Assembly (NCBI GenBank): GCA_030390025.1
Contig: JASTWF010000034.1
Location: forward strand, 2,976,001-3,040,000
Source: Squalus acanthias
Taxonomy: Eukaryota
Direction of reading: 5' to 3'
Length of the DNA stretch: 64,000 nt
The position numbers were made by a program, and so were the translations under genes. Below are positions 1-17,762 of this stretch, in pieces; the stretch's first letter is position 1; every line of letters starts with the position of its first letter. The notes under the pieces are model-generated. The model had not been told where the DNA came from and did no database searches. It saw only the letters and a program-made list of their open reading frames with translations.

Positions 1-3000
1 CTCATCTCAGTTTTGAAAGAGCAGCCTCTTATTCGAAGATTATGCCCCCTAGTTCTAGTTTCACCCATCCTTGGGAACATCCTTACCGCATCCACCCGGT
101 CGAGCCCCTTCACAATCTTATGTGTTTCAATAAGATCGCCTCTCATTCTTCTGAACTCCAATGAGTAGAGTCCCAATCTACTCAACCTCTCCTCATATGT
201 CTACCCCCTCATCCCCGGGAATAACCGAGTGAACCTTCTTTGTACTGCCTCGAGAGCAAGTATGTCTTTTCTTAAGTATGGACACGAAAACTGTATGCAG
301 TATTCCAGGTGCGGTCTCACCAATACCTTATATAACTGCAGCAATACCTCCCTGTTTTTATAATCTATCCCCCTAGCAATAAAAGCGAACATTCCGTTGG
401 CCTTCTTGATCACCTGCTGCACCTGCATACTAACTTTTTGATTTTCTTGCACCAAGACCCCCAGATCCCTTTGTACTGCAGTACTTTCCAGTTTCTCGCC
501 ATTAAGATAATAACTTGCTCTCTGATTTTTCCTGCCAAAGTGCATAACCTCACATTTTCCAATATTGTTTTGCATCTGCCAAATCTCCGCCCACTCACCC
601 AGCCTGTCTATATCCTCTTCTAGGTTTTTTATGTCCTCCTCACTTTCTACTTTCCCTCCCATCTTTGTATCATCTGCAAACTTTGATATGTTACACTCCG
701 TCCCCTCCTCCAAATCGTTAATATAGTTTGTAAATAGTTGGGGACCCAGCACCGACCCCTGCGGAACACCACTGGCTACTGGTTGCCAGTCCGAGAATGA
801 ACCATTTATCCCAACTCTCTGCTTGCTGTTAGATAACCAATCCTCCACCCATGCCAGAATATTACCCCAATCCAGTGATTTTTTATCTTGAGCAATAATC
901 TTTTATGTGGCACCTTGTCGAATGCCTTCTGGAAGTCTAAATACACTACGTCCACTGGTTCCCCTTTATCCACCCTGTACGTTATGTCCTCAAATAACTC
1001 AAGCAAATTTGTCAGACATGACTTCCCCTTCATAAAGCCATGCTGACTTTGTCCTATTAAATTATGTTTATCTAAATGTTCCGTTACTGTCTCCTTAATA
1101 ATAGACTCCAAAATTTTACCCCCCGCATATGTTAGGCTAACTGATCTATAATTTCCAGCCTTCTGCCTACGACCCTTTTTAAATCAGGGTGTTACAATAG
1201 CAGTTTTCCAATCTGCCGGGACCTTTGCTGAGTCCAGGGAATTTTGGAAAATTATTACCAAAGCATCCACAATCCCTACTGCCACTTCCCTCAAGACCCT
1301 AGGATGTAAGCCATCAGGTCCCGGGGATTTATCCGCCTTCAGTCCCATTATTTTACTGAGTACTAATTTCTTAGTGATTTTAATCGTATTTAGCTCCTCC
1401 CCCACGAGAGCCCCCTGTTTGTCCAGTGCTGGGATATTCTTAGTGTCCTCTACCGTAAAGATTGAAACAAAATATTTGTTCAGAATTTTTGCCATCTCCA
1501 TGTTCCCACCATTAATTTCCTGGTCCCATCCTCTAAGGGACCTACGTTTTCCTTAACACCCTTTTTCTTTTTATATAACTAGAGAAACTCTTGCTATCGG
1601 TTTTTATATTTTTTGCTAATTTAGTTCATAATCTATCTTCCCTTTCTTAATCAATCCTTTAGTTACTTTTTGCTGTTTTTTGAAGACTTCCCAATCTTCT
1701 ATCCTCCCACTAAGTTTGGCAACCTTACACGTCTTTGTTTTTATTCGGATACTATCCTTAATTTTTTTACTTAGCCACGGATGGCTGGCATTTCTTCTAC
1801 ACCCTTTTTTCCTCAGTGGAATATTTTTTTTTGAAAGTTGTAAAATAACTCCTTGAATGAATACCACTGCTCATGTACCGTCTTACCCTTTAATCTATTT
1901 TACCAGTCCTCTTTAATCAATTCCGCTCTCATACCATCATAGTCTCCTTTATTCAAGCTCAGTACGCTTGTTTGAGAACCAACCTTCTCACCCTCTAATT
2001 GGATATGGAATTCAACCATGTTATGGTCACTCATTCCAAGGGGATCCTTAACGAGGACATTATTAATTAATCCTGACTCATTACACAGGACCAGGTGCAA
2101 GGTTTTTGCCCCCATGTAGGATCAGTTAAGTACTGCTCAAGAAATCCATCCCCAATACACTCAATAATCTCTTCTTCAATGCTGCCCTGCCCAATTTGAT
2201 TTGTCCAGTTAATATGATAGTTAAAATCACCCATAATTATAGCTGTTCCCTTATTACATGCCCCAACTATTTCCCATTTACTACTTCTTCCAGTAGAGTT
2301 GCAACTGTTAGGAGGCCTATATACTACTCCCACTAGTGTGTTTTTCCCCTTATTATTCCTTATCTCCACCCAAACTGTTTCATTATCCTGATCCTTTGAC
2401 CCAATATCATTTCTCTGTTTTACAGTGATTCCTTCCTTTATTAACATAGCCACCCCACCTCCCCTTCCTTCCTGCCTGTCCTTCCTGATTGTTAAATACC
2501 CTGGCATATTTAATTCCCAGTCGTTGTCACCCTGCAGCCATGTTTCTGTAATGGCCACAAGATCATACCCATACGTAGTTATTTGTGTCGTTAACTCGTC
2601 CATTTTGTTATGAATGCTACGTGCATTCAGATAAAGAACTTTCAAATATGTTTTGTGACACTTAGTTCCTGCTTTTTCCTTTTTTAACACTTTACCTTTT
2701 ACTCCATACCTTCTGTCCCTTCCTGACACGCTGTCCTCTGTCTCCCTGCTCAGGTGCCCAACCCCCTGCCACTTTAGTTTAAACCCTCCCCAACAGCAGT
2801 AGCAAACTCTTCCCCTAGGACAGCGGTCCCGGCCCTACCCAGGTGGAGACCGTCCGGTTTGTACTGGTCCCACCTCCCCCAGAACCGGTTCCCATGTCCC
2901 AGGAATTTGAATCCCTCCCCCTTGCACCATTCCACTAGCCACGTATTCATTTGAAATATCCTCCTATTTCTACTCTGACTAGCAAGAGACACTGGTAGCA

Positions 3001-3531
3001 ATCCTGAGATTACTACCTTTGAGGTCCTATTTTTTAATTTACCTCCTAACTCCCTATATTCTGCGTTTAGGACCTCATCCTCTTTTTTTACCTATATCGT
3101 TGGTGCCGATGTGCACCACGACAGCTGCCCGTTCGCCCTCCCCCGCCAAAATGTTCTGTAGCCACTCCGAGACGTCATTGACCCTTGCACCAGGGAGCCA
3201 ACACACCATCCTGGAGTCTCGGTTGCGGCCGCAGAAACGCCTGTCTATTCCTGTTACAATTGAGTCCCCTATCACTATAGATCTTCCACTCTTTTTCCTC
3301 CCAGCCCCTGCAGCAGAGCCACCCATGGTGCTAGGAAGTTGGCTGCTGCTGCCTTCCCCTGATAAGTCATCCCCCCCAACAGTATTCAAAGTGGTATATC
3401 TGTTTGAGATGGGGATGTCCACAGGGGACCCCTGCATTGCCTGCCGGCACCTCTTACTCTGCCTGATGGTCACCCATTTACTTCCTGCCTGTGCATCCTT
3501 TGCCTGCGGTGTGACCAACTCTCTAAACGTA
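1..3531 (-). mobile_element. CR1-clade (HER1-like) LINE, degenerate; 5'-truncated inside ORF1 and running off the window at the 3' end
   Basis: Collinear frameshifted ORFs: ORF1 esterase/SGNH-like (IVIGDSIV, HIGTNDIG; 3518-2774), AP endonuclease (YLNARSI, ITETWL, IIMGDFN; 2729-1900), RT ([45 protein letters not shown]; 1111-201). Confidence 0.95.
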
Positions 3532-4660
3532 CAGGGGTGGTGTCACGGGTATAGTATTAAGCGGAAGTGTCACAGAGTTATAATGTACAGGGGGATGTCA
3601 CAGGGGTATAGTATACAGGGGTGTGTCACGGGTATTGTATACATGGGATGTCATGGGTATAGTATACAGTGGAGTGTCAGGGGTATAGTATAAAAGGGTT
3701 GTCACGGGTATAGTATAAAGGGGTGTGTCATGGGTATTGTATACAGGGGTTGTCACGGGGGTATAGTATACAGCTGTGTGTCACGGGTATTGTATACAGG
3801 GGGTGTAACAAGTATAGTATACAGGGGTGGTGTCACGGGGGTTGTTACAGGGGAATAGTAAAAAGGGGGAGTGTCACAGGGTTCTCGTGTACAGGGGATG
3901 TCACGGGATGTAGTTTACAGTGTGGTGTCACAGTGGTGTTGTATACAGGGGAGTGTCACAGGGGTATAATATATGTGGGTGATGTCACAGCGCTATAGTA
4001 CACTGGGGTGTGTGACATGGGTATATTATACAGGGGGTGTCACGGGTATAGTACACAGGGGTTGTGTCACAGAGGTATAGTATACAGGGGAGTGTCACAG
4101 GGGTATTGTATACAGGGGAGTGTCAGGGGTTTAGTGTACAGGGGTTGTCATGGGTATAGTATACAGGGGAGTGTCACAGGGATATAGTATACAGGGGTTG
4201 TCACAGGGGTATAGTATACGGGGTTGTCACGGGTATAGAGTACAGGGGGTGTCACGGGTATAGTATATAGGGGGTGTCACGGGTATAGTATACGGGGGGT
4301 GTCACGTAGTATACTGTACAGGGGGTGTCACGGGTATAGTATACAGAGGTGGTGTCGCAGGGTTATAGTATACAGGGTGGTGTCACGGGGTATACTGTAC
4401 AGGGGGTGTCACAGGGATATAGTATACAGGGGGGTGTCACCGGTATAGTGTATAGGGGGTGTCACAGGGGTAGAGTATGCAGGGGGAATCATAGGGTTAT
4501 AGTATACGGGGCGTGTCACAGGGGTCTAGTGTCCAGGGGTTTTCACGGGTATAGCATACAGGGGGGTGTCACTGGGTATAGTGTACAGGGGGTGTCACAG
4601 GGTTATAGTATACAGGGGGTGTCACGCGTATAGTATTCAGGGCGTTGTAGACGGGGATAT
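3532..4660. repeat. Degenerate tandem minisatellite, unit ~25-27 bp (GGGTATAGTATACAGGGGGTGTCAC)
   Basis: Directly visible periodic GTATAGTATACAGGG/GTGTCAC motifs; the ORFs here are repeat translations. Confidence 0.9.
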
Positions 4661-5767: not shown

Positions 5768-6995
5768 TGTTACCTGGACGGTTCTTGGCCGCGCGGCGAT
5801 CTGTAAGATCCTGCACACTTAAATTCACATGCCGCACAGTGAGCTGGAGCGGACGGAGGGGCCCAATACCCAAAGTATAAGGGTTTTTTTGTCTCGGGCT
5901 TATTTGTAGGTCAGCCAGTTATCTTTTCCTGGACTGTACTGCCCGCTGTGCGGTTACAAATCGCTATCCCCTTATTAGTTCTGAGCCCAGGACTTATCGA
6001 GCGGCGATAAGGCCAAATGAACAGACCCGTGGATTGGTGCGAAGAAAACCAATGTTTATTTACAGAAGTAAAACTACAGAGAAACAGTATCATATGAAGA
6101 CGTTTTACACTTAACATGGGAGGGGAACGGACACATCGAGGGAAATCCTAAAATTACAATTTTAGCAATATCCCCATTAATTCCCACCCTTATGCCTAAC
6201 TAAAATTGTCTTGCGACAGACAGAAGAAGATAAATGCTCACCGGTGAAATGGATGGAAAAAGCCTGGCCCTGTGCTCTGTTTCTGCAGTCGACATGTGGC
6301 TGCGAAGTTTCTGGTCGTCTTCTTTCTGGGCTGCTGGCCGGCAGACAAAGCGAACCGGGGTCCAGGCAGAGAGTGAGAGAGAATGGCTGGGTCTTCCCAG
6401 TTATACCCCTCCCGGTCGCCCTAATCTCCCTTCAGATCAGCTCATTTCTATTGTCTGATCTGGGCATGATGAATTTAAACAAAAGGTACTGGTCTCGGCC
6501 CATCATGTTAGATGGCCGGTGATTGTATAATTCCAGTTCTTCAACTGCTCCCCTATTGTTCGACAGGTTCGATGATTGTCCAGAACAGTTTCGTTGATGG
6601 GGGGCCAGCCCCGTCTCAATGTCCCCGCTGATTATTTGAGCAAACACCTTGAAAGCCTTATGCATAGACCTGATTGTAATGCATAAGGGAAGGTCCCGTC
6701 TGGTTTCGTGAACTTCCTGTTGCAGACATCGGAATACACAAGCTGATAGCTTCCCAGCGTCTGAAAACCTCTGGGTCACAAGGTATTTTAAAACTCAGTC
6801 TGACCAGGGTTCCTTATTAATAAGTCCAACAAAAAATCTTTGCGGGGGGAACACATGAAATTTTGTGAATCCTTTCAGTCCCCCCTGTGGAGAGTTGAAC
6901 TTGCTTGAAGTGTCCATACGAGGTGAACAAAATTTCTGACTGTCGCAAACAACCTTACCCTTTATTTACCTATCCCAATTCCCCCGACACGTACA
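5768..6995 (-). mobile_element. 3' LTR of an env-bearing retroviral remnant
   Basis: On the minus strand the purine tract AAGTGGGGGAA (7006-6996) is immediately followed by TGTAC; TATAA box near 6401-6405; AATAAA at 6060-6055; ends ...GGTAACA at 5768. Confidence 0.7.
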
Positions 6996-7181: not shown

Positions 7182-9412
7182 TTAGGCCGCCATCACTCGT
7201 AAGTGGTGCGACACGGAATTCACGCGAGTGTCTCGTCTACCCGAGCATACTGGTCCCTCCAGACCCTTTCGGTTCTTGCTACTGCCTCGGGACCCTTTTT
7301 CCTACACTGGACGCAAACCAGGTAGAGGACGTCCCGAGCTGACAAATTACACGCACGTGTGATGCCAGACGAATCCAGGAAGGGACCTCGATATTCTCAA
7401 AGATGTCCCACCAGGGTGGGGTCGTAATATGCAGAATATCGGCCCCTATCTGGATAGTCTTCTGCTCCAGTGTATAAAATGCTTTTGCGACACTACTACG
7501 GCCCTTAATAGTTTAATGAGGTGTTCTGGGAGAGGGGGAATCTGTTAGCCGAAGTCAGCCACTTACTTTTGGAGGTTGGTGAAATTCTCTCTTACAGTTA
7601 GGTGAACCGTGGATGGTTCAGGTATGGGGATAATTCGTTCCTGGGCCATGGCTTCCATGGTATAATTTATAGGTTTCGCGTCAGCAGCTCTGGACCCGCA
7701 TTGTGGTTTCGAATAGGCATTCAAGTGTTGGGGACACAGGATGATGTGTGCTCCCCGGCTACGGCACCCCGAGAGGTCAGTACCCGTCATAGCGTGATCC
7801 CACTTTATGATGTAGGGCGGGACCGCTGTAAAACGAACGTGTGCACCCCCCTGAATGACACCAATGTTCTCCACCCTGTATACCGGCGCGGCTCGGGCCG
7901 TCCCGCCCATGACAGGCATCCTTACTATTATCCCCATGATAGTGTGGTTGGAACGTCCACAGTCCACTGGGACTGGGTAGGTCTCGGAAGCTAGTCGGAG
8001 CTGGCATGGGCTTAATGCATTCTCAAAAGGGTGGAGGGCTGCGAGGTGCTTGTTGCTGATCCAGGAGGGGACCAAACCCTGTTTTAAGTCCTCCAGATTT
8101 CTGCGGCCCTCGCCCAGCAGCCATGCCCCGTACAGTACGCACACCTCGTTTTGCGCAGCCTGGTCAGACGTATTCTGATCCTCCCTAATGAGCGCATTCA
8201 CCGTCTTTGCATGTATCTCCAGCTCCGCTATGATCTCCTTTAGATGGAAAGTCATGGCCTGGTCTTCATGCAGTTCCAAACCCACTATCTTGTTCTCATC
8301 AGTTGAGACCTTATTTAATTGGGTCTTCAGACCATTGATCTGCGTCTGCACTTCAATGTCGTCTAAACTATTAATAACAGAAGACCCCGCATTAAAACCC
8401 GTTAAATCATCATTAACAATACCCCTTCTCTGTCTCCCCACCCCGTCCCAACCCTCGTGGCTATGTTTATACAATTTGGTCTTATCGATCTCCGCAAAAT
8501 CGAACTCGTACAACTTTTGAAATGTTTCCCTTAAGAGGGCTTGATAAAATTTAGCGGTCTCTGCAGGGCACCACGCGGGCAAGTGCACCTCAGTGAGATT
8601 TAAGATCACCGAGGCCACCGCGTAATGCACCCCTTGATAGAGCACCTGGTCTGTGGGTACCAGCACCACGCCGTTCCCTGGTCCCTTGGTGGTGGCGGGG
8701 CATCCCTCTGCTACAGTCCGTGACATCGGGGTCGTGGACATGGGCTGTCGGGGACGGGTCACTAATTCAGTGGCATTAACCGAGATTGGGGAGTATGGGA
8801 TCATGCATGCATCCAGGCGCGACCCCCAGTCCATCCCCCTCCCATTATCCTGCCACTGGCTGTGGAAAATGATGGAAACGCCCATGGGGCAGACTCTCTC
8901 TGAACCCCACATACAGACATAGATCCCCTGATCCGGTTCCCACCATTTGTCCCAGCACACACTTAACCCTCCCTGGGTCCCCGTGATGGTCCTGTGGGTG
9001 TCGTTCCCTAACCTTTCCCATTCTACCCTGGGGTTCCCCATGTCTTTGCTTAATTTTCTGAGCCACCACCTTCTATCCAGGAGAACGTTGCTCTTACATG
9101 ACAAACAAATCATTTTGCCCACGGTGACGCTGATCCTTGGGGTGACGATCCATATCCTCGGGCACTGGAGGGAGGCCTCCCCATATGTAAAACCGGTCTG
9201 GCTCGAGTACTGGGTCGAGTTTGATCCCAGCCATCCAGGCCAGCTCCCCTCGTGAGTATGCTAGGCAATTTCATCCGCCTCGCGTAGGCCACTTCCATCG
9301 TGGGCTAGGGGCGCCGTCCTTCCGGAGCATCCGAAGATGCGGTGGTCCTCGGTTTCGCCCCTTCTCGCGAGGCTCAGCCCAGACAGGGGAACAAGATCAG
9401 GCCTCCGAACAT
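7182..9412 (-). pseudogene. env: Retroviral env (class I fusion glycoprotein, foamy/lokiretrovirus-like), disrupted at both ends; 519-aa open core at 9122-7563
   Basis: ATG at 9412 with a hydrophobic leader (MFGGLIL.., frameshifted); stop at 9263-9261; furin site RQRR followed by GIVNDDLTGFNAGSSVINSL and a heptad-like helix; VYRVENIG..HVRF..PY..DLSGC..IILC..QCG block; past the stop at 7563 the reading continues with frameshifts as IPPLPEHLIKLL..PSWIRLASHV..VLYLVCVQCRKK (TM and tail) to TAA at 7182. Confidence 0.8.
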
Positions 9413-9428
9413 TTCCCCTTTTAGTTGC

Positions 9429-9452
9429 CTGAAAAAAAAAATAAAGAAAATT
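9429..9452 (-). promoter_or_regulatory. Putative env splice acceptor
   Basis: Minus strand TTTTCTTTATTTTTTTTTTCAG|GCAACT, with the exon starting 16 nt upstream of the env ATG at 9412. Confidence 0.65.
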
Positions 9453-10115
9453 TAGCCAGTCTCCCTATAGGCTCCTTGGCTGGGGTAAAGTGTGAGCGAG
9501 GCCCTGGACCTCAGCTCACATGGACAAACACGCATAAACTGGAACGGTTCAATCTTAAAACAGCTATACGGTTCTGCACCTTAAAATCAAACTCAACAAT
9601 CTAACTTAAAGTACAAACTACTCAGACCAAGTTCTGTACATTTGCCGCCCGTCTTAGCGGCTAGCTTAAACTCTGTTAGGACTGCGGCAGGCTGCTCCCT
9701 GCAGCGTGGCAGTACGGACCCTTGCTTCTGGTCCCACACAGCCTGCGACTGTTGGCTGGGGACCTTTGTCTTTTAACTTAACTGTAGCTCGGGAGGTCGC
9801 CCCTTTAAACTGGAGAGTCGGCGACCATGTCTTCCTAGGTTGGGGTGTCCGAGGGGACCTCCTAGGAAGTGCTATAGGTGTGACTGCCCTGGCGAGTGGA
9901 CCTTTGCCGTGGGTCGCAGTCCTCGCTGGCTGGGGGCTTTTCCCCCGTGGCTCCTCCCCTCCAAGTCTGAGCTGGGGACAGACAATCCCTCGCTGCCTGC
10001 TGCTGTTGGCTGAGAGTCCTCGCCTCCAGAACCTTCAAAATCTGGGTCGGGGCTGGGCTATCTGGTTCAGGCCCCTCCTCCTCCCCACCTGAGTCCCAGA
10101 AGATTGATTCTTACC

Positions 10116-11389
10116 TGTATGTACCTAAAACACCACTTTGAAAAGGGGAATGTATGTTTGGGTTTTTAGTTTAGGTAAAACAGGGGAAGGTTGGTTTTCG
10201 AGGATCGGAAATTTTGCTCACCTGTTAATGATACTAATTCATTGTAGTATCAAAGTGGGGGATGTAGGCTTCGCAAAATCACCCAGAAACTCGAACAGAG
10301 CCCTAAAGGGAGTGATTTTTGGACTTTTCATACAAACTTGGGATGATGGGACTTAAGTGAAGTGATTTGATGTAAAAACCTAAAGATCACAAGAAGAAAA
10401 CCCTGAGGAAAATGACTTTTCGAATCTTATTGTTGGGAGAGACATTTTTTTCACAGACACAAGCTGCGAGGGGCGTGGCTGGTCAGTGAACAGATCAAGC
10501 TGTCTCGGAATTGTTTGAGACAATAGCAAAACTCACAAACACACTCAAATATGGATCCCCAGGGCCAAACAAGATGCTGGAAATCTACAAACGATTCAAT
10601 GACAATATAACTTCGATCACACAGTTTCATAGCCATTATCCCATCAAAAAAACAATCAACCAGGTATCCAGAGAACAGATTTAAAAGCCCGCCAACAGAA
10701 GGACAATAGGGTGAAGATTTGGCGCGTAGATAAGGCTGTGTTTTTAAATCGGAAAACGATTAACACTAAGCAAAAATCATCGAAACTGGCCAGCCCGCCA
10801 AAAACTAAATAATTGGACGAAGCAAGGGCCATTTACATTCAAAAAGGAATTCGGTTTAGTAAGGGGTTTTTAGGCACGAAAAAGAAACAGTATAATTTGA
10901 AAGCCTGTGCCATATTCTCTCTCTTTTTGGACTGACTGACGACGCGAACACAGCTCTCTCCCTGCTGCAGCAAAACTTACCACAAGCCGCGAGGAAGGAG
11001 GCCAGAATACCAGCACGCAAGAAGAAACCAAAGCGACTATCCTGTCAACGGTTCGTTGGTGAGCATTATCCCTGATCTTCTGAAACCAAAAACCTAGCCA
11101 GATATTGGGATCTTTGGGAGCGATAAGGTTTTGTTTGATATATTGTCATTTCCCTCGCTTGTACCATGTGTTCCCCGAATCTGTGTTTAAGTAATAAGTG
11201 TGTTTCAAGTTTGTTACTTTTTTTTTCTTTTAATAAAGTACATTTCTTTCATCAGAACCTGTTTACTGCAATTTTGTTCACAACCCCTAAATAAGCCCAA
11301 AGTCTAGGGACGGGAGGGGTGTTGGAGTGATTCGAACTGCTCACTGTGTCAGAAAGCGAAGGCTGACCCCACTTAAGATACTCCTTACA
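10116..11389 (+). mobile_element. LTR-like element (solo LTR) with non-matching flanks
   Basis: TGTATG...CCTTACA termini; TATAAT near 10891; AATAAA near 11232; right flank is a CR1 3' tail (TGGCCTACACCTACTCCTATTTC); left boundary uncertain. Confidence 0.5.
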
Positions 11390-12960
11390 TGGCCTACACC
11401 TACTCCTATTTCTAATGTTCTTAAAGCTCCCTCAAACATTTCCAGACAGGCGCACAAAAGCAAAATACTGTGGATGCTGGAAATCTGAAGTAAAAACAGA
11501 AAATGCTGGAAATACTCAGCAGGTCAGCAGCATCTGAGGAGAAAGAAACAGAGTTAAAGTTTCAGGTCGATGACCTTTCATTGGAACAGGCAGATACACA
11601 TGGATTAGATACAGAGCAATGCTCCACTCACCTCACTGTAACACTCTGATATACCCAACACCATTCACTTTAACACTCTGATATACCCCACAACACTTAC
11701 TGTAACACACTTGTATAGCTCACTACACTCTGATAAACCCACATCGCTCACTGCAACACTCAGATACACCCCACTCTCTTTCATACACCAAACCTCTCGC
11801 TGTAACACACTGACATACCCCACAACCCTCATTGTAATATTGAGATACTGAACACCCCTCACTGTAACACTGATATACCCCCCATCAATCACTATAATAA
11901 TCTGATATAACGCACAACCCCTCACTGTAACACACTGATATAAACAACACTCCTCACTATAACACTGATATAGCCCACACTCCTGACTGTAACACTCTCT
12001 TACATACCCCAAACATCTCACTGTAACACACCGTTACACCCCATGCCCCTCACTGTAACACTTTGTGATATACTCCATACACCTCGCTGTAACACTCTGA
12101 TATGCCCGACACCCCTCAATGTAACACACTGATATAACCCCAAACCCCTGACTGTAATACTCTGTTATATACCACACCCCTCACTGTAACACTCTGATAA
12201 TCCCAACACCGGTCATTGTATTACTCTGATGTACCCCACTCCCGTAACTGTAGCACTCGGATGCTAACCCAATCTCCTGATTACAGCACTCTGATATACC
12301 CCACACATGCCTTCATGTAACACACCGGTATACCCCACACCCCTTATGGTAACACTCTGTTGTACGCCGCTCCCCTTCATTTAACACTGATATACCTCAC
12401 ACACCTCACTGTAACACTCTGGTATACCCCTAATTGAATCATCTCTTACATATTTCAAACATCTCACTGTATCAGACCGATATACCCCACTCACCGTCTT
12501 TCAACACTGTGATACACCCCACACCATTCACTTAAATTCTCTTACTTATCCCAAACCTCTCACTGTAACAGACAGATATACCCCACTCACATCACTTTAA
12601 CACTTTGATATACCCCACACCCCTCGCTGTAACACTTTGATATACCCAACAAACATCAATGTAACACTCCGATATACCCCACACCCCTCGCTGTAACACT
12701 TTGATATACCCCACACCCCTCACTGTAATACTCTGTTATACCCAACACCCCTCGCTGTAAAACTGTGATTTACCCGACACCTCTCACTGTAATACTAATA
12801 TACACCACACTCTTCACTGTAACACACTGATATACCCCACCAGACTCACTTTAACTATCTGATATATCCCACACCCCTCACTGTAACACTGTCATATACC
12901 CCACATGTCTCACTGTACCTCTCTGATTTAACCCATACACCTCACTGCAACACGCTGATA

Positions 12961-14075
12961 TGAATTACTAGTCCTAACCCCTTTAGGGCTACCCCGGATC
13001 AGGCATATTCTTCAGACGTTCACTTTCAACTAAACTTTGAGGTAGCCGAATCCTAAAGATGCTTAATTCGGTCTAAAGGTCCGGACTATCTCTGCTTAAA
13101 GGAAAGGAACAATCTAAACATGTTACCGTCCTCCAGATAGCACTTTTAATAAGTTTAGCTAGACTGTAACGTTCCGGATATTATGACGGTCCGGAAAACT
13201 CCCCAGAATTCTGCAACTCCTCACCAAAGAGTGTACAGAGATTGAGTTCGCGAGTTTGATACAGAAGTCTTATGTGAGACAATTCTAAAACTATATAGAT
13301 TTATTAAAGAACCGACATGTAATTTACAGTTGGAGAGTCAATCGCAACAACAATATATCCAAAAAGAGAAAGCTTACAATCCTATCAGAGAACCTTACTT
13401 TCAAATCTTAACTTCGCTACAGTTTTACAGTTCTTAGTTTTCTACAGGATATCCACCAAAATCAAATACCTTTGATACCCGAGGTACAAAGAGTTGAAGA
13501 CATACAGAGTCGCCTCTGAAGCCAAGAATTACCTTGCCCCTTTAAAGCGTGTATAATATCCCATTTGAGAGTTCAATATTTATACTCTTTTCCAGTGGTA
13601 TTTCCTTTAAGGTTTTCTGCTGATGTAAGCTAATCATCTCTGGTCATTTTTCAGCTGACCCCTGCAATTCTTACAGTCACTACAGCTGGTAGCATTACAG
13701 AATTATGTCTCTTCTCTAAGTGTTCTAAATTTACCATAAAAACGGTGTAACGGCAGGTGTGTATTACTTGATGTCATTTTTATGAAGGCAGATGTTTGTG
13801 CTTCTTTACGAAGTGTAAATTAGAACACCTTAACCAGGGTGAACCATTGTCTTGATCCAAAAGGTCAGCCTACCGGAGCCTTTAACCTTCTGTTTCGATA
13901 AGGTTATAGATTGAGTGTCAACAACCATCTTATTTCTAAAGTCAGAATGCTTTCACAGCTTTTTCATAGTTAGGTTTCTAGATTTCCAGTCCCAGTTTGT
14001 CACATTTTAATAAGACCAGAGTTCTTTCAGAGAATGGTGTATTTTCCTGAATAGGTTATATGGCTTATTCCTTCA
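12961..14075 (-). mobile_element. Solo LTR inserted in the 32-bp satellite
   Basis: TG...CA termini; flanks GATA/GAAA (4-bp TSD with 1 mismatch; removal restores GATATAAACCACAC); minus-strand TATAAA near 13580 and AATAAA near 13300. Confidence 0.75.
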
Positions 14076-14884
14076 GAAATAAACCACACACCTCTCACTG
14101 CAACACTCTGATATACCCCACACCTCTCACTGTAACACTGATATACCTCACACCCCTCACTGTAATACACCGATATAAACCACACCCTTCACTGTAACAC
14201 TGTGATATACCTCACACCCCTACCTGTGACACTTTGATATAATCCACACACCTCACTGCAAGACGCTGATAAACCCCACACCCCTCACTGTAACACTCTG
14301 ATATACCTCACACCCCTACCTGTGACACTCTGATATACACCACACACCTCACTGCAACGTGCTGATAAACACCACACCTCTCACTGTAACACTCTGATAT
14401 ACCCCACAACCCTCACTGTTACCCACTGATATACATCACACCCCTACCTGTGAAACTCTGATAAATTCCACACCCCTCACTGTAACACTCTGATATAACC
14501 CACACTGCTCACTGTAACACTCTGATAGACCCAACAACCATCAATGTAACACTCTGATATACACCACACCCCTCACTGTACCACTGTGATATACCTCACA
14601 CTACTCACTGTAACTCTCTGATATACCCCATACATCTCACTACAACACGCTGATAAACCCCACACCCCTCACTATAACACACTGATGTACCCCGCACGAC
14701 TCACTGTAACTCTCTGATATACCCCACACCCTCACTGTAACATTCTGATGTACCCCACACCAATCAGTATAATAATCTGATATACACCACACCCCTCACT
14801 ATAACACTCTGATATAAACCACACCCCTCACTGTAACACTCCGTTATACCTCACACTCCTGATTGTAACAATCTCTATCACACC

Positions 14885-15730
14885 CCAAGGAAGGCAAATG
14901 GTATGCTGGCCTTCATTACAAGAGGATTTGAGTACAGGAGTAAAGATGTCTTACTCAATTTATTTACGGCCTTGGTGAGACCACACCTGGAGTACTGTTA
15001 ACAATTTTGGTCTACTTACCTAAGGAAGGATATACTTGCCATCGAGCGAGTGCAACGACGGTTCACGAGATTGATTCCTGCGAAGGCGGGACTGTGGTGT
15101 GAGAAGAGAATGTGTAAACTAGGCCTTTATTCCTTTGAATTCAGAAGAATGAGTGGGGATCTCATTGAAGCATAACAACTTATTACAGGGCTTGATAGTT
15201 TGGAAGCTGAGAGAATGTTTCCCTTGGCTGAGGAGTCTTGAACCAGGGGCCACAACCTCAAAATAAAGGGCAGGCCATTCAGGACTGAGATGAGAAGCAT
15301 AGAAATATAGAAACATAGAAGATAGGAGCATGACTCGGCCATTCGGCCCCTCGAGCCTGCTCCGCCATTTAATGCGATCATGGCTGATCATCCAAATTCA
15401 GTACCCTGTCCCTGTTTTCGCCCCATATCCCTTGATCCCTTTAGCCTTAAGAAATATATTTAACTCTAATAAAGACATTTCTTCACAAAGAGGGTGGTGA
15501 ATCTTTGGAATTCTCTACCCCAGAGGGCTGTGGAGGATCAGTCATTGGGTATATTCAAAAGAGATTTCGATAGGTTTCTGACTAGTAAAGGCATCAAGGG
15601 ATATCGCGATAAGTCCGGTGAAAGGAATTGAGGCAGAAAATCAGCCATGATGTCATTGAAAGGCGGAGCAGGCTCAAGGGGCCGGATGGCCTACACCTGC
15701 ACCTATTTCATACGTTCTTATGTTCTTAAA
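14885..15730 (+). mobile_element. CR1 3' fragment with a nested inverted CR1 3' tail (~15298-15470)
   Basis: KANGMLAFITRGFEYRSKDV..LVRPHLEYC coding remnant; inverted CATAGAAA tail and CGGCCATTCGGCCC inside. Confidence 0.85.
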
Positions 15731-17762
15731 CCTCTCACTGTAACACACCGTTTTACACCAGGCCCCTCACTGTAACTCTCTCTGAAATACTCCATACCCC
15801 TCGCTGTAACACTCTGATATACTCCACACCCCTCACTGTAACACTCTGATATACTCCATACCCCTCACTGTAACACTCTGATATACCCAAAACCGCTCAC
15901 TGTAACGCACCGTTTTACCCCACGCCCCTCACTGTAACACTCTCTGATATACTCCATACCCCTCGCTGTAACACTCTGACATACCCGACACCCTACAATG
16001 TAAAACACTCATATAAACCCACTCCCCTGATTGTAACACTCTGTTATACACCACACCTCTCACTGTAACACACTGATATACCCAAAATCTCTCACTGTAA
16101 CACTCTGTTATACACCACACATCTCACTGTAACACTCTGATATACCCAACACCGCTCATTGTATTACTCTGATGTACCCCACACCCCTCACTGTAGCACT
16201 TTGATGTAAACCCACTCCCCTGACTACAACACTCTGATATACCCCACACACCCCTCACTGTAACTATCGATATACCCAACAACCCTCACTGTAACACTGT
16301 GATATAAACCCACGCCCCTGACTATAACACTCTGATATACCCCATACATCCCTTACAGTAACACACTGATATACCTCACACACCTCTCTGTACCACTCTG
16401 ATATACCCCTTGCTTTAATCCTCTCTTACATATTCCAAACCTCTCACTGTAACAGACCGATATACCCCACTAACCTCACTTTAACACTCTGATATACCCC
16501 ACACCCCTCGCTGTAAAACTGTGATTTAGCCGTCACCTCTCACTGTAATACACTGATATATCACACCCCCTTCACATTAACACTCTCATATACCCCACAT
16601 GACTCAGTGTAACTCTCTGATATATCCCACACACCTCACTGCAACATGCTGATAAACCCCAAACCCCTCACTGTAACACACTGATATACCCCACACACCT
16701 CACTGTCACACTGATATACCTCACACACCTCACTGTAACACACTGATATACACCACATCTCTCACTGTAACATTGTGATATACACCACACACCTCAATGT
16801 AACACACTGATATACCCCACACTGTTCACGGTAACAGTATGATATACCCCACACACCTCACTGCAAAATGCTGATAAATCCCACACCCCTCACTGTAACA
16901 CTCTGATATACACCACACACCTCACTGTAACTCTCTGATATACCTCACACCCCTCACTGTAACACTGTGATATCCACCACACACCTCACTGTAACTCTCT
17001 GATATACACCACATTCCTCGCTGCAACACGCTGATACACCCCACAACCCTCACTGTAACACACTGATATACCCCAACACGACACTGTTACACTCTGATAT
17101 ACTGCACACCCCTCACTGTAACACACATGATATACCCCACAACCCTCATTGTAACACTCTGATGTACCCCACACACCTCACTACAACACGCTGATAAACC
17201 CCACACCCCTCATTGTAACACACTGATATACACCATCCCTCTCATTGTAACACTCTGATACACCCCTCAATGTAATTCTCTCTTACATACTGATACATCC
17301 CACACCACTCCCTGTTATCACTGCTACTTTAATCCCATGGGCTTCAATTTTGGTAATATGTGATACTTTATCAAGCACATTTTGTAATGATTGGGAAATT
17401 GGTACAGTGTGAGTAGTATCAATCATACAACGACAGAATTGGAGATCCAAGTGTTGTTGACAATTTGTTTAGCGTACTTGAAGTCCCGCTCTGATCACAG
17501 GCCTCATCTGGTTTCAATCAATGAATTATAATATCATTGATTTTAATCCTATTTTATTATTTCTATGTATTTGTTCTCAGGCTAGGGGTGACGCTGTCAA
17601 GGCCGGGGCCACTTGCCCATCCCTAGTTACCCATGAGAAAATGGTGGGCCTTCATCTTGAGCCGCTGCAGTCCGCGTGGAGATGGTGCTCCCACAATACT
17701 GTTGTGGAAGGAATTTCAGACTTTTGAACCAGTGACGATGAAAGAACGGTGATATTTTTGAA

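Follow-up and report, generated by a model that had tools for sequence, protein, structure and literature searches.

The window analysed here, a 64,000-nucleotide stretch of Squalus acanthias DNA, contains on its minus strand the env gene and 3′ LTR of an endogenous retrovirus (Table 1). The element is truncated at position 10103 and is without RT, gag and 5′ LTR; its LTR is 86–93% identical to the LTRs of paralogues (4 of 4 compared). A search of the 3.71-Gb genome with the post-cleavage half of env returned 135 matches at 80–100% identity, in 133 scored places of 9,203 candidates, which bears out the assignment to an endogenous retroviral env made in an earlier note on this DNA. Because of these matches and of the dN/dS between env subfamilies (0.08–0.18 over the whole env; 0.08–0.12 for subfamily A against B, C or D), the window env is not a chance frame.

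Table 1. Features of the env element and of the sister element joined to it, in window coordinates.
Feature	Position	Strand	Remarks
Sister-subfamily 3′ UTR, polypurine tract and LTR	10100–11389	+	Opposite orientation; 90–96% identical to L034–L036
3′ end of pol frame and pre-env region	9453–10103	−	~95% identical to paralogues up to 10103, none beyond
Candidate env splice acceptor (T-tract and CAG)	9429–9452	−	16 nt ahead of the ATG; proposed from sequence only
Signal-peptide region	9261–9412	−	ATG 9412, frameshift near 9388, stop 9261–9263
V-type Ig-like domain (C..W..DQGIYVC), candidate receptor-binding head	8862–9149	−	Models and weak Pfam Ig_3 match
Predicted F-type fusion core	7563–8702	−	Paralogue model compared with PDB and BFVD
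Relic HR2, transmembrane helix and ~30-aa tail	7213–7562	−	Transmembrane helix and tail ~7213–7377, frames shifted
Polypurine tract	6878–6888	−	G-run adjoining the LTR start, as in paralogues
3′ LTR of subfamily-A element	5876–6877	−	~1.0 kb; ends set from paralogue LTR pairs

A broken env copy at a chimeric junction

From stop to stop, the window env frame (7563–9260, minus strand) encodes 565 aa. The 519-residue core of the earlier note is obtained by counting from a GTG at 9122, and the first ATG, at 9113, gives 516 aa; either start falls within the Ig-like domain, which was missing from that note's list of features. The leader, the RQRR site, the relic transmembrane helix and tail, the polypurine tract and the LTR that it did list are all present on the minus strand. 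Its splice acceptor corresponds to a pyrimidine tract followed by AG, a candidate whose motif recurs in the 4 of 4 paralogues shown; no record containing the sequence is catalogued as RNA, and contigs of four runs covered a pol-less copy and lacked the env-acceptor joint, which is uninformative either way. Within the fusion core, an F2-like part is followed by RQRR (8424–8435), a weakly hydrophobic fusion peptide, HR1 and Cys/beta domains, with the sequence VYRVENIG at 7883.

The leader frameshift and the stops ahead of the transmembrane segment had been recognized as defects, and both are there; the stop at 9261–9263 and an in-frame deletion of 153 nt (51 codons, relative to paralogues) at 7642–7648 had been missed. 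At the 3′ end, the frame is broken by stops at 7563–7565 and 7545–7547 and by frameshifts near 7479 and 7331. The window env is real but dead, an ordinary dead insertion, and this copy likely yields no functional protein. Of 8 listed subfamily-A copies, 7 have an 82-codon ATG frame that overlaps the 5′ part of env in another frame (window ~9050–9298, minus strand), and 6 have an ATG frame of 85–99 codons in U3; given the high identity of the copies, both may be due to chance.

At 10100–10103 the cut minus-strand element is fused to the 3′ end of a plus-strand sister element, a junction found in the window alone among 40 scored places. No target duplication was found around this chimeric element, which has two inverted, unlike LTRs. 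A short GC-rich segment with a TG start (5768–5875) separates the LTR from a SINE-like repeat and lies outside the LTR of the paralogues. The window also contains LINE-like RT/endonuclease relics and long satellite arrays with 27-, 31-, 32- and 51-bp units (201–3542, 11630–17300 and 39900–63300).

Predicted fold of the Env protein and its N-terminal heads

Pfam and PDB sequence searches with the window ORF, its paralogues and family profiles gave no fusogen match; Baculo_F matched one chimeric Env homolog weakly (E 0.0011). CX6CC is absent from the window env and PF00429 was not found, in keeping with the earlier view that this Env is not gamma-type. The fold was modelled on the ectodomain of one natural paralogue, as a monomer from a 47-row alignment (mean pLDDT 57; 70–90 over much of the core and ~50 in the Ig region). 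In a Foldseek search of the PDB, human parainfluenza virus 3 (hPIV3) F was the top match (1.1e-10) and the rows listed were all F proteins; structural comparison with VIA returned nine F chains at Z 12.2–10.1, and the F-protein matches span residues 226–635 of the model. Foamy virus Env (8rm0) followed at Z 10.0 over 294 aligned residues, its rmsd of 4.8 being the lowest among the VIA fusion-protein matches. We conclude that the family Env is predicted to adopt a class I fold of the paramyxovirus/pneumovirus F type, and the relation to F proteins suggested in the earlier note is supported by this model.

Among viral models in BFVD, the top rows were an unnamed 928-aa protein (2.4e-16), WEHV1 Env (3.7e-16, the best named match), lispivirus glycoproteins and WDSV Env (1.5e-11), with feline foamy Env at rank 47 (4.1e-4). 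The best named matches are thus epsilonretroviral, an outcome that the earlier note had set against its reading; those Envs are likely F-type themselves, and the fold assignment stands. The paramyxovirus and pneumovirus F proteins (hPIV3 1ZTM, PIV5 2B9B, RSV and hMPV) share with the family Env the furin site, fusion peptide, HR1 and HR2 and are its best structural matches, yet they are only 6–14% identical to it, and they are paired with a separate attachment protein where the family Env has an N-terminal head of its own. Foamy Env (PDB 8RM0/8RM1; PMC11468914) has the F-type core and the ENIG..PY..C block in common with the family. It differs in its length (~990 aa with a leader peptide, against ~780 aa and a short signal at the N-terminus) and in its inserted receptor-binding domain; the family Env has neither that domain nor the long leader, and its head, unlike that of foamy Env, is N-terminal and Ig-like.

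Profile comparisons extended these relations to named viruses. HHalign aligned the family Env profile with SnRV Env over 359 columns (probability 96.2%, E 2.6e-9), with WDSV Env over 290 columns (97.1%, E 6.8e-11) and with a foamy Env over 95 columns (64.8%), the last being the VYRVENIG..HV..PY..C block, in which the earlier note had seen a foamy-like transmembrane-subunit motif. An HMM test of 33 Env frames gave the order WDSV (L109), SnRV (L080), then foamy; 198 controls, shuffled or reversed, reached E 0.36 at best, and no gamma-type Env beat them. Because of these alignments, and of the WEHV1 and WDSV matches in BFVD, an F-type fold is likely for SnRV Env, judged by sequence, and for the walleye Envs, judged also by predicted structure. 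In the literature searched, no paper connects F proteins with the Env of SnRV or of the walleye viruses, or lokiretroviruses with elasmobranchs; Hart 1996, the cartilaginous-fish foamy paper and Calcraft 2024 lie outside that search and may contain part of these results.

Ahead of the fusion core, residues 72–171 of the paralogue model resemble a V-type Ig domain (VIA match to TREM-1, Z 8.1, rmsd 2.8, 94 aligned), and Pfam Ig_3 matches weakly in 4 of 4 paralogues. The top matches of this head are V domains of the TREM, NKp44, CD300 and pIgR type, at 10–16% identity and middling Z; no host donor of the head was found among the structure matches. A low-confidence model of the window's own N-terminal (Ig) part (pLDDT 46) matched solely Ig domains in VIA (Z ≤6.2) and gave nothing under 0.001 in Foldseek, its matches being at E 0.01 or worse. 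On the same Env core, a frog model linked to Pol and P0043 carry V-set-type Ig heads that are 48% identical to each other, P0015 and P0027 carry a Cys-rich module, and P0050 has no module. The Ig, frog V-set Ig and Cys-rich modules are mutually unmatched, P0043 and P0016 had no significant match in the PDB, and the N-terminus of SnRV Env had no sequence match to the family head. The N-terminal modules would fit a receptor-binding head that can be exchanged, an arrangement reported for gamma-type Env (bioRxiv 2024.03.17.585361); the exchangeable head of that Env is likewise IgV-like, although the scaffold is gamma-type there and predicted F-type here.

By modelling, an intact Env would consist of a signal peptide, a V-type Ig domain, a Pro/Thr linker, an F2-like chain and the RQRR furin cut, followed by the fusion peptide and HR1, beta domains, HR2, the transmembrane helix and a short tail. 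The Ig-like head would likely bind the host cell. By the example of known F proteins, the Env would form a trimer whose HR1 and HR2 refold into a six-helix bundle, bringing about membrane fusion.

The provirus family and its place among retroviruses

Stop-free frames of at least 775 aa occur at 23 of the 133 scored env places. In a sample of 50 places from the top of the match list, chosen in part for long frames, RT is present in 12, capsid and env without RT in 32, and neither capsid nor RT inside the 10-kb stretch in 6. Breakpoints of the pol deletions are common to pol-less copies within subfamilies A and B. Full-length copies are ~11 kb, arranged LTR–gag–(UGA)–pro–pol–env–LTR. Where both LTRs are present (27 copies), they mismatch by 0.4–3.7% (median 1.5%), and the target duplication is 4 bp in 16 copies and 5 bp in 1, the remainder being without a clear call. 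With substitution rates of 2.2e-10 (shark) or 2.2e-9 (mammal) (PMC4422223), the insertions would be roughly 34 or 3 million years old, a tenfold uncertainty that depends on the rate chosen. Directly upstream of one provirus, at L020 3274–4704, there is a distinct gag-like frame that contains a zinc knuckle. Among 55 representatives, 20 of which were identified by name, the closest Env homologs belong to chondrichthyans (sawshark, skate, catshark and others) and remoter ones to frogs and coelacanth, so that the cartilaginous-fish origin proposed for this fusogen is likely.

The linked Gag has a coiled-coil region ahead of the capsid and a zf-CCHC knuckle (E 4e-4), and the linked Pol comprises PR, RT, tether, RNase H and IN, with a dual RNase H whose tether is well kept. 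Pol lies in frame behind a gag UGA followed by CUA or CUG (for example, L017 4189), a context seen in every pattern-matched copy, as the pattern itself demanded. UGA-CUA is a known leaky-stop context. The primer-binding site (PBS) of subfamily A pairs with host tRNA-Arg(ACG) and is identical at 18 of 18 nt to that of L080, which is SnRV by its RT strings and was the one relative found when viral contigs were scanned by RT motifs; a scan of the viral contigs with a single RT protein found no relative. In subfamily-A copies (L015 2278–2300, L017 2262–2285 and others), the start codon of gag comes four bases past the LTR and coincides in part with the beginning of the PBS, which leaves almost no leader, against ~250 nt from PBS to gag ATG in L080. 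Subfamily B has a different PBS after the 5′ LTR (L023–L025, L029), presumably for another tRNA-Arg isoacceptor.

The nearest Pol proteins are frog and coelacanth models named 'NYNRIN-like' (48–50%). Among 34 viral references, L080 was the best RT match by BLAST (42%, 236 bits), ahead of epsilon (≤212), gamma (≤210) and foamy (≤190) sequences, and it was also the best RNase H match; the capsid matched gamma best, and integrase matched epsilon and gamma best, with SnRV outside the top 6. The family RT has LDISNGFWS and LPQGFHNSP, and SnRV has LDISNGFWS and LPQGFH.SP. In an RT tree built without loki, CGIN1, fish foamy-like and CmiERV sequences, the family formed one group (95/90) with the proteins from frogs and coelacanth, at an open fork with SnRV and the foamy viruses. 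A branch of the family with SnRV had a weak support of 62 in a reduced set (23 of 47 rows), and a grouping with epsilon RTs was rejected (AU p 7e-5). The frog Pol relative P0004 continues into an env with the family's Ig head. Because this frog Pol precedes the same Ig-headed env, pol and env are linked from sharks to frogs.

Together, these data lead us to read the element, with a probability of roughly 78%, as a broken, 5′-truncated env with its 3′ LTR from a high-copy endogenous retrovirus that likely belongs to the SnRV (Huo) group and whose intact Env is predicted to be an F-type fusogen with an Ig-like head. The family and the SnRV clade are alike in the tRNA-Arg PBS, the in-frame gag–pol stop, the coiled-coil and CCHC Gag and the ~11-kb length (PMC4422223, PMC6001957, PMC12193657). 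They differ at the gag–pol junction, where UGA-CUA/CUG in the family stands against UAG-GGC in SnRV and readthrough is putative, and in Env, SnRV having a 1134-codon frame with a 136-aa tail and the family ~780 aa with a 30-aa tail. SnRV also has a 3′ ORF and small accessory ORFs, whereas family members have no ORF in common between env and LTR. Relatives of SnRV have been reported across vertebrates (PMC6001957) and in the elephant shark, as CmiERV lineage I (PMC4422223), which speaks against the undescribed lineage that the earlier note had held possible. Its placement with foamy viruses or lokiretroviruses also gives way, as the linked gag, pol and PBS do not match the marks of either group and lead to the SnRV clade instead.

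A shark retrovirus of foamy affinity (clade Tu), deeply sister to spumaviruses, would account for the YVDD motif, for prototype foamy virus (PFV) integrase being the best PDB match, for the low rmsd and aligned motif of foamy Env, and for the RT sisterhood of family and foamy viruses not being rejected (AU p 0.32). We consider it unlikely, since the family falls outside the 100/100 clade of 16 foamy references, has a CCHC knuckle in Gag and a tRNA-Arg PBS, and has pol in frame behind UGA where the foamy references have an overlapping, out-of-frame pol. Foamy Gag has no zinc knuckle, foamy Pol is not in frame with Gag, and the foamy primer is tRNA-Lys1,2. PF03408, which scored above 1500 bits in 3 of 3 foamy references, was found in none of 47 family members, and the ~780-aa Env with its short signal also fits poorly. 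Foamy RTs carry PQGFLNSP, and fish foamy-like RTs have other strings than the family (PMC7947760 supplement). A lokiretrovirus, which would be the first from cartilaginous fish, was our first reading from the 'NYNRIN-like' names of the Pol neighbours and was dropped after RT motif comparison; we now hold it to be very unlikely. The F-like Env, the dual RNase H with its tether and the coiled coil before the capsid speak for it, F-like Env and dual RNase H being loki features (PMC7947760), although neither is exclusive to loki. Against it, loki RTs carry (C/T)PFG (77 'CPFG' occurrences; motif C/T-PFGY.NSP), whereas LPQGFHNSP and LDISNGFWS are like SnRV; PF00523 had no match in the family; and the paper that describes loki found it in 0 of 6 chondrichthyan genomes (PMC7947760).

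A recombinant, with RT and PBS from an SnRV-like virus and env, perhaps also integrase, from an epsilonretrovirus-like donor, would explain why the WDSV and WEHV1 Envs score highest and why the best integrase matches include epsilon. Yet WDSV Env aligns in the post-cleavage half only, while SnRV Env aligns from the CP..GP..G core start, and the Pol of P0004 is likewise linked to an Ig-headed env; we regard this origin as rather unlikely. The epsilonretroviruses WDSV and WEHV1 further differ from the family in having YMDD instead of YVDD and an Env of ~1200–1300 aa. That the window copy is a co-opted, secreted ectodomain, such as a restriction factor, is suggested by a long open core that ends ahead of the transmembrane segment. 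This is very unlikely: a frameshift together with a stop cuts off the signal peptide, the core lacks 51 codons, and the copy lies in a rearranged, satellite-rich stretch. In the dN/dS check for co-option that the earlier note had proposed, the window copy stood at 0.53–0.55 against its nearest subfamily-A copies, above the 0.35–0.40 among copies within that subfamily, so that co-option is unsupported.

Selection on pol-less copies and the wider family

Between subfamilies, dN/dS in the Ig part of env is 0.13–0.16. In 20 pol-less subfamily-A copies, chosen partly for long open frames and with CpG sites removed, pN/pS of shared changes was 0.47 in env (p 0.013) and 0.41 in gag (p 0.002), against 1.1 in the relic pol that served as control. 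Singleton changes were near neutral (env 0.78, gag 0.98, relic pol 0.81); for env, the contrast between singleton and shared changes, based on small counts, was not significant (Fisher p 0.20). The shared changes show that gag and env of pol-less subfamily-A copies have been under purifying selection. Complementation in trans is a known route for endogenous retroviruses (PMC10435555), and we infer that the pol-less gag–env copies depended for their spread on full-length helpers as the source of Pol, their gag and env having stayed useful or been refreshed by recombination. Env-keeping, pol-less elements of this kind run contrary to the env loss that is usual in high-copy endogenous retroviruses.

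The value of the locus lies in the family that it leads to, with its predicted F-type fusogen and swappable heads, its link to SnRV and the walleye viruses, and its pol-less gag–env dependants. F-like Env has been reported for lokiretroviruses (PMC7947760) and solved for a foamy virus, in a paper that uses the contrast with orthoretroviral Env for the split between subfamilies (PMC11468914); a review describes epsilonretroviral Env as a distinct, more recent type (PMC9967133), and related literature includes PMC13517186, PMC13709493, PMC12583693 and bioRxiv 2021.11.23.469661. We tentatively propose, at somewhat less than even odds, that the F-type fusogen is an old envelope common to fish-level retroviruses (the SnRV clade, walleye epsilonretroviruses, foamy viruses and lokiretroviruses, two of these groups now being placed in Orthoretrovirinae), that among SnRV-clade viruses its N-terminal heads are swappable, some of them being host-captured Ig domains, and that in this shark it was kept under selection by pol-less gag–env satellite proviruses that outnumber their helpers. 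If the SnRV-clade and walleye Envs are F-type, both the contrast drawn for the subfamily split and the view of a recent epsilon Env need revision, and the ancestral retroviral fusogen becomes testable. SnRV can be grown in fish cell lines, which would allow the structure of its Env to be solved from an existing virus, and exchangeable Ig heads on an F core would serve as a model of how fusogens gain receptor-binding modules.

Env sequences of this family also appear in annotated proteins. Shark gene models named Niban-like, cadherin-related, zinc-finger and FBXO15 (P0002, P0003, P0012 and P0037) contain env pieces, probably as annotation artefacts or by exonisation. A cluster from the frog Mantella (P0047) has at least 12 members of 677 aa, which suggests a young expansion.
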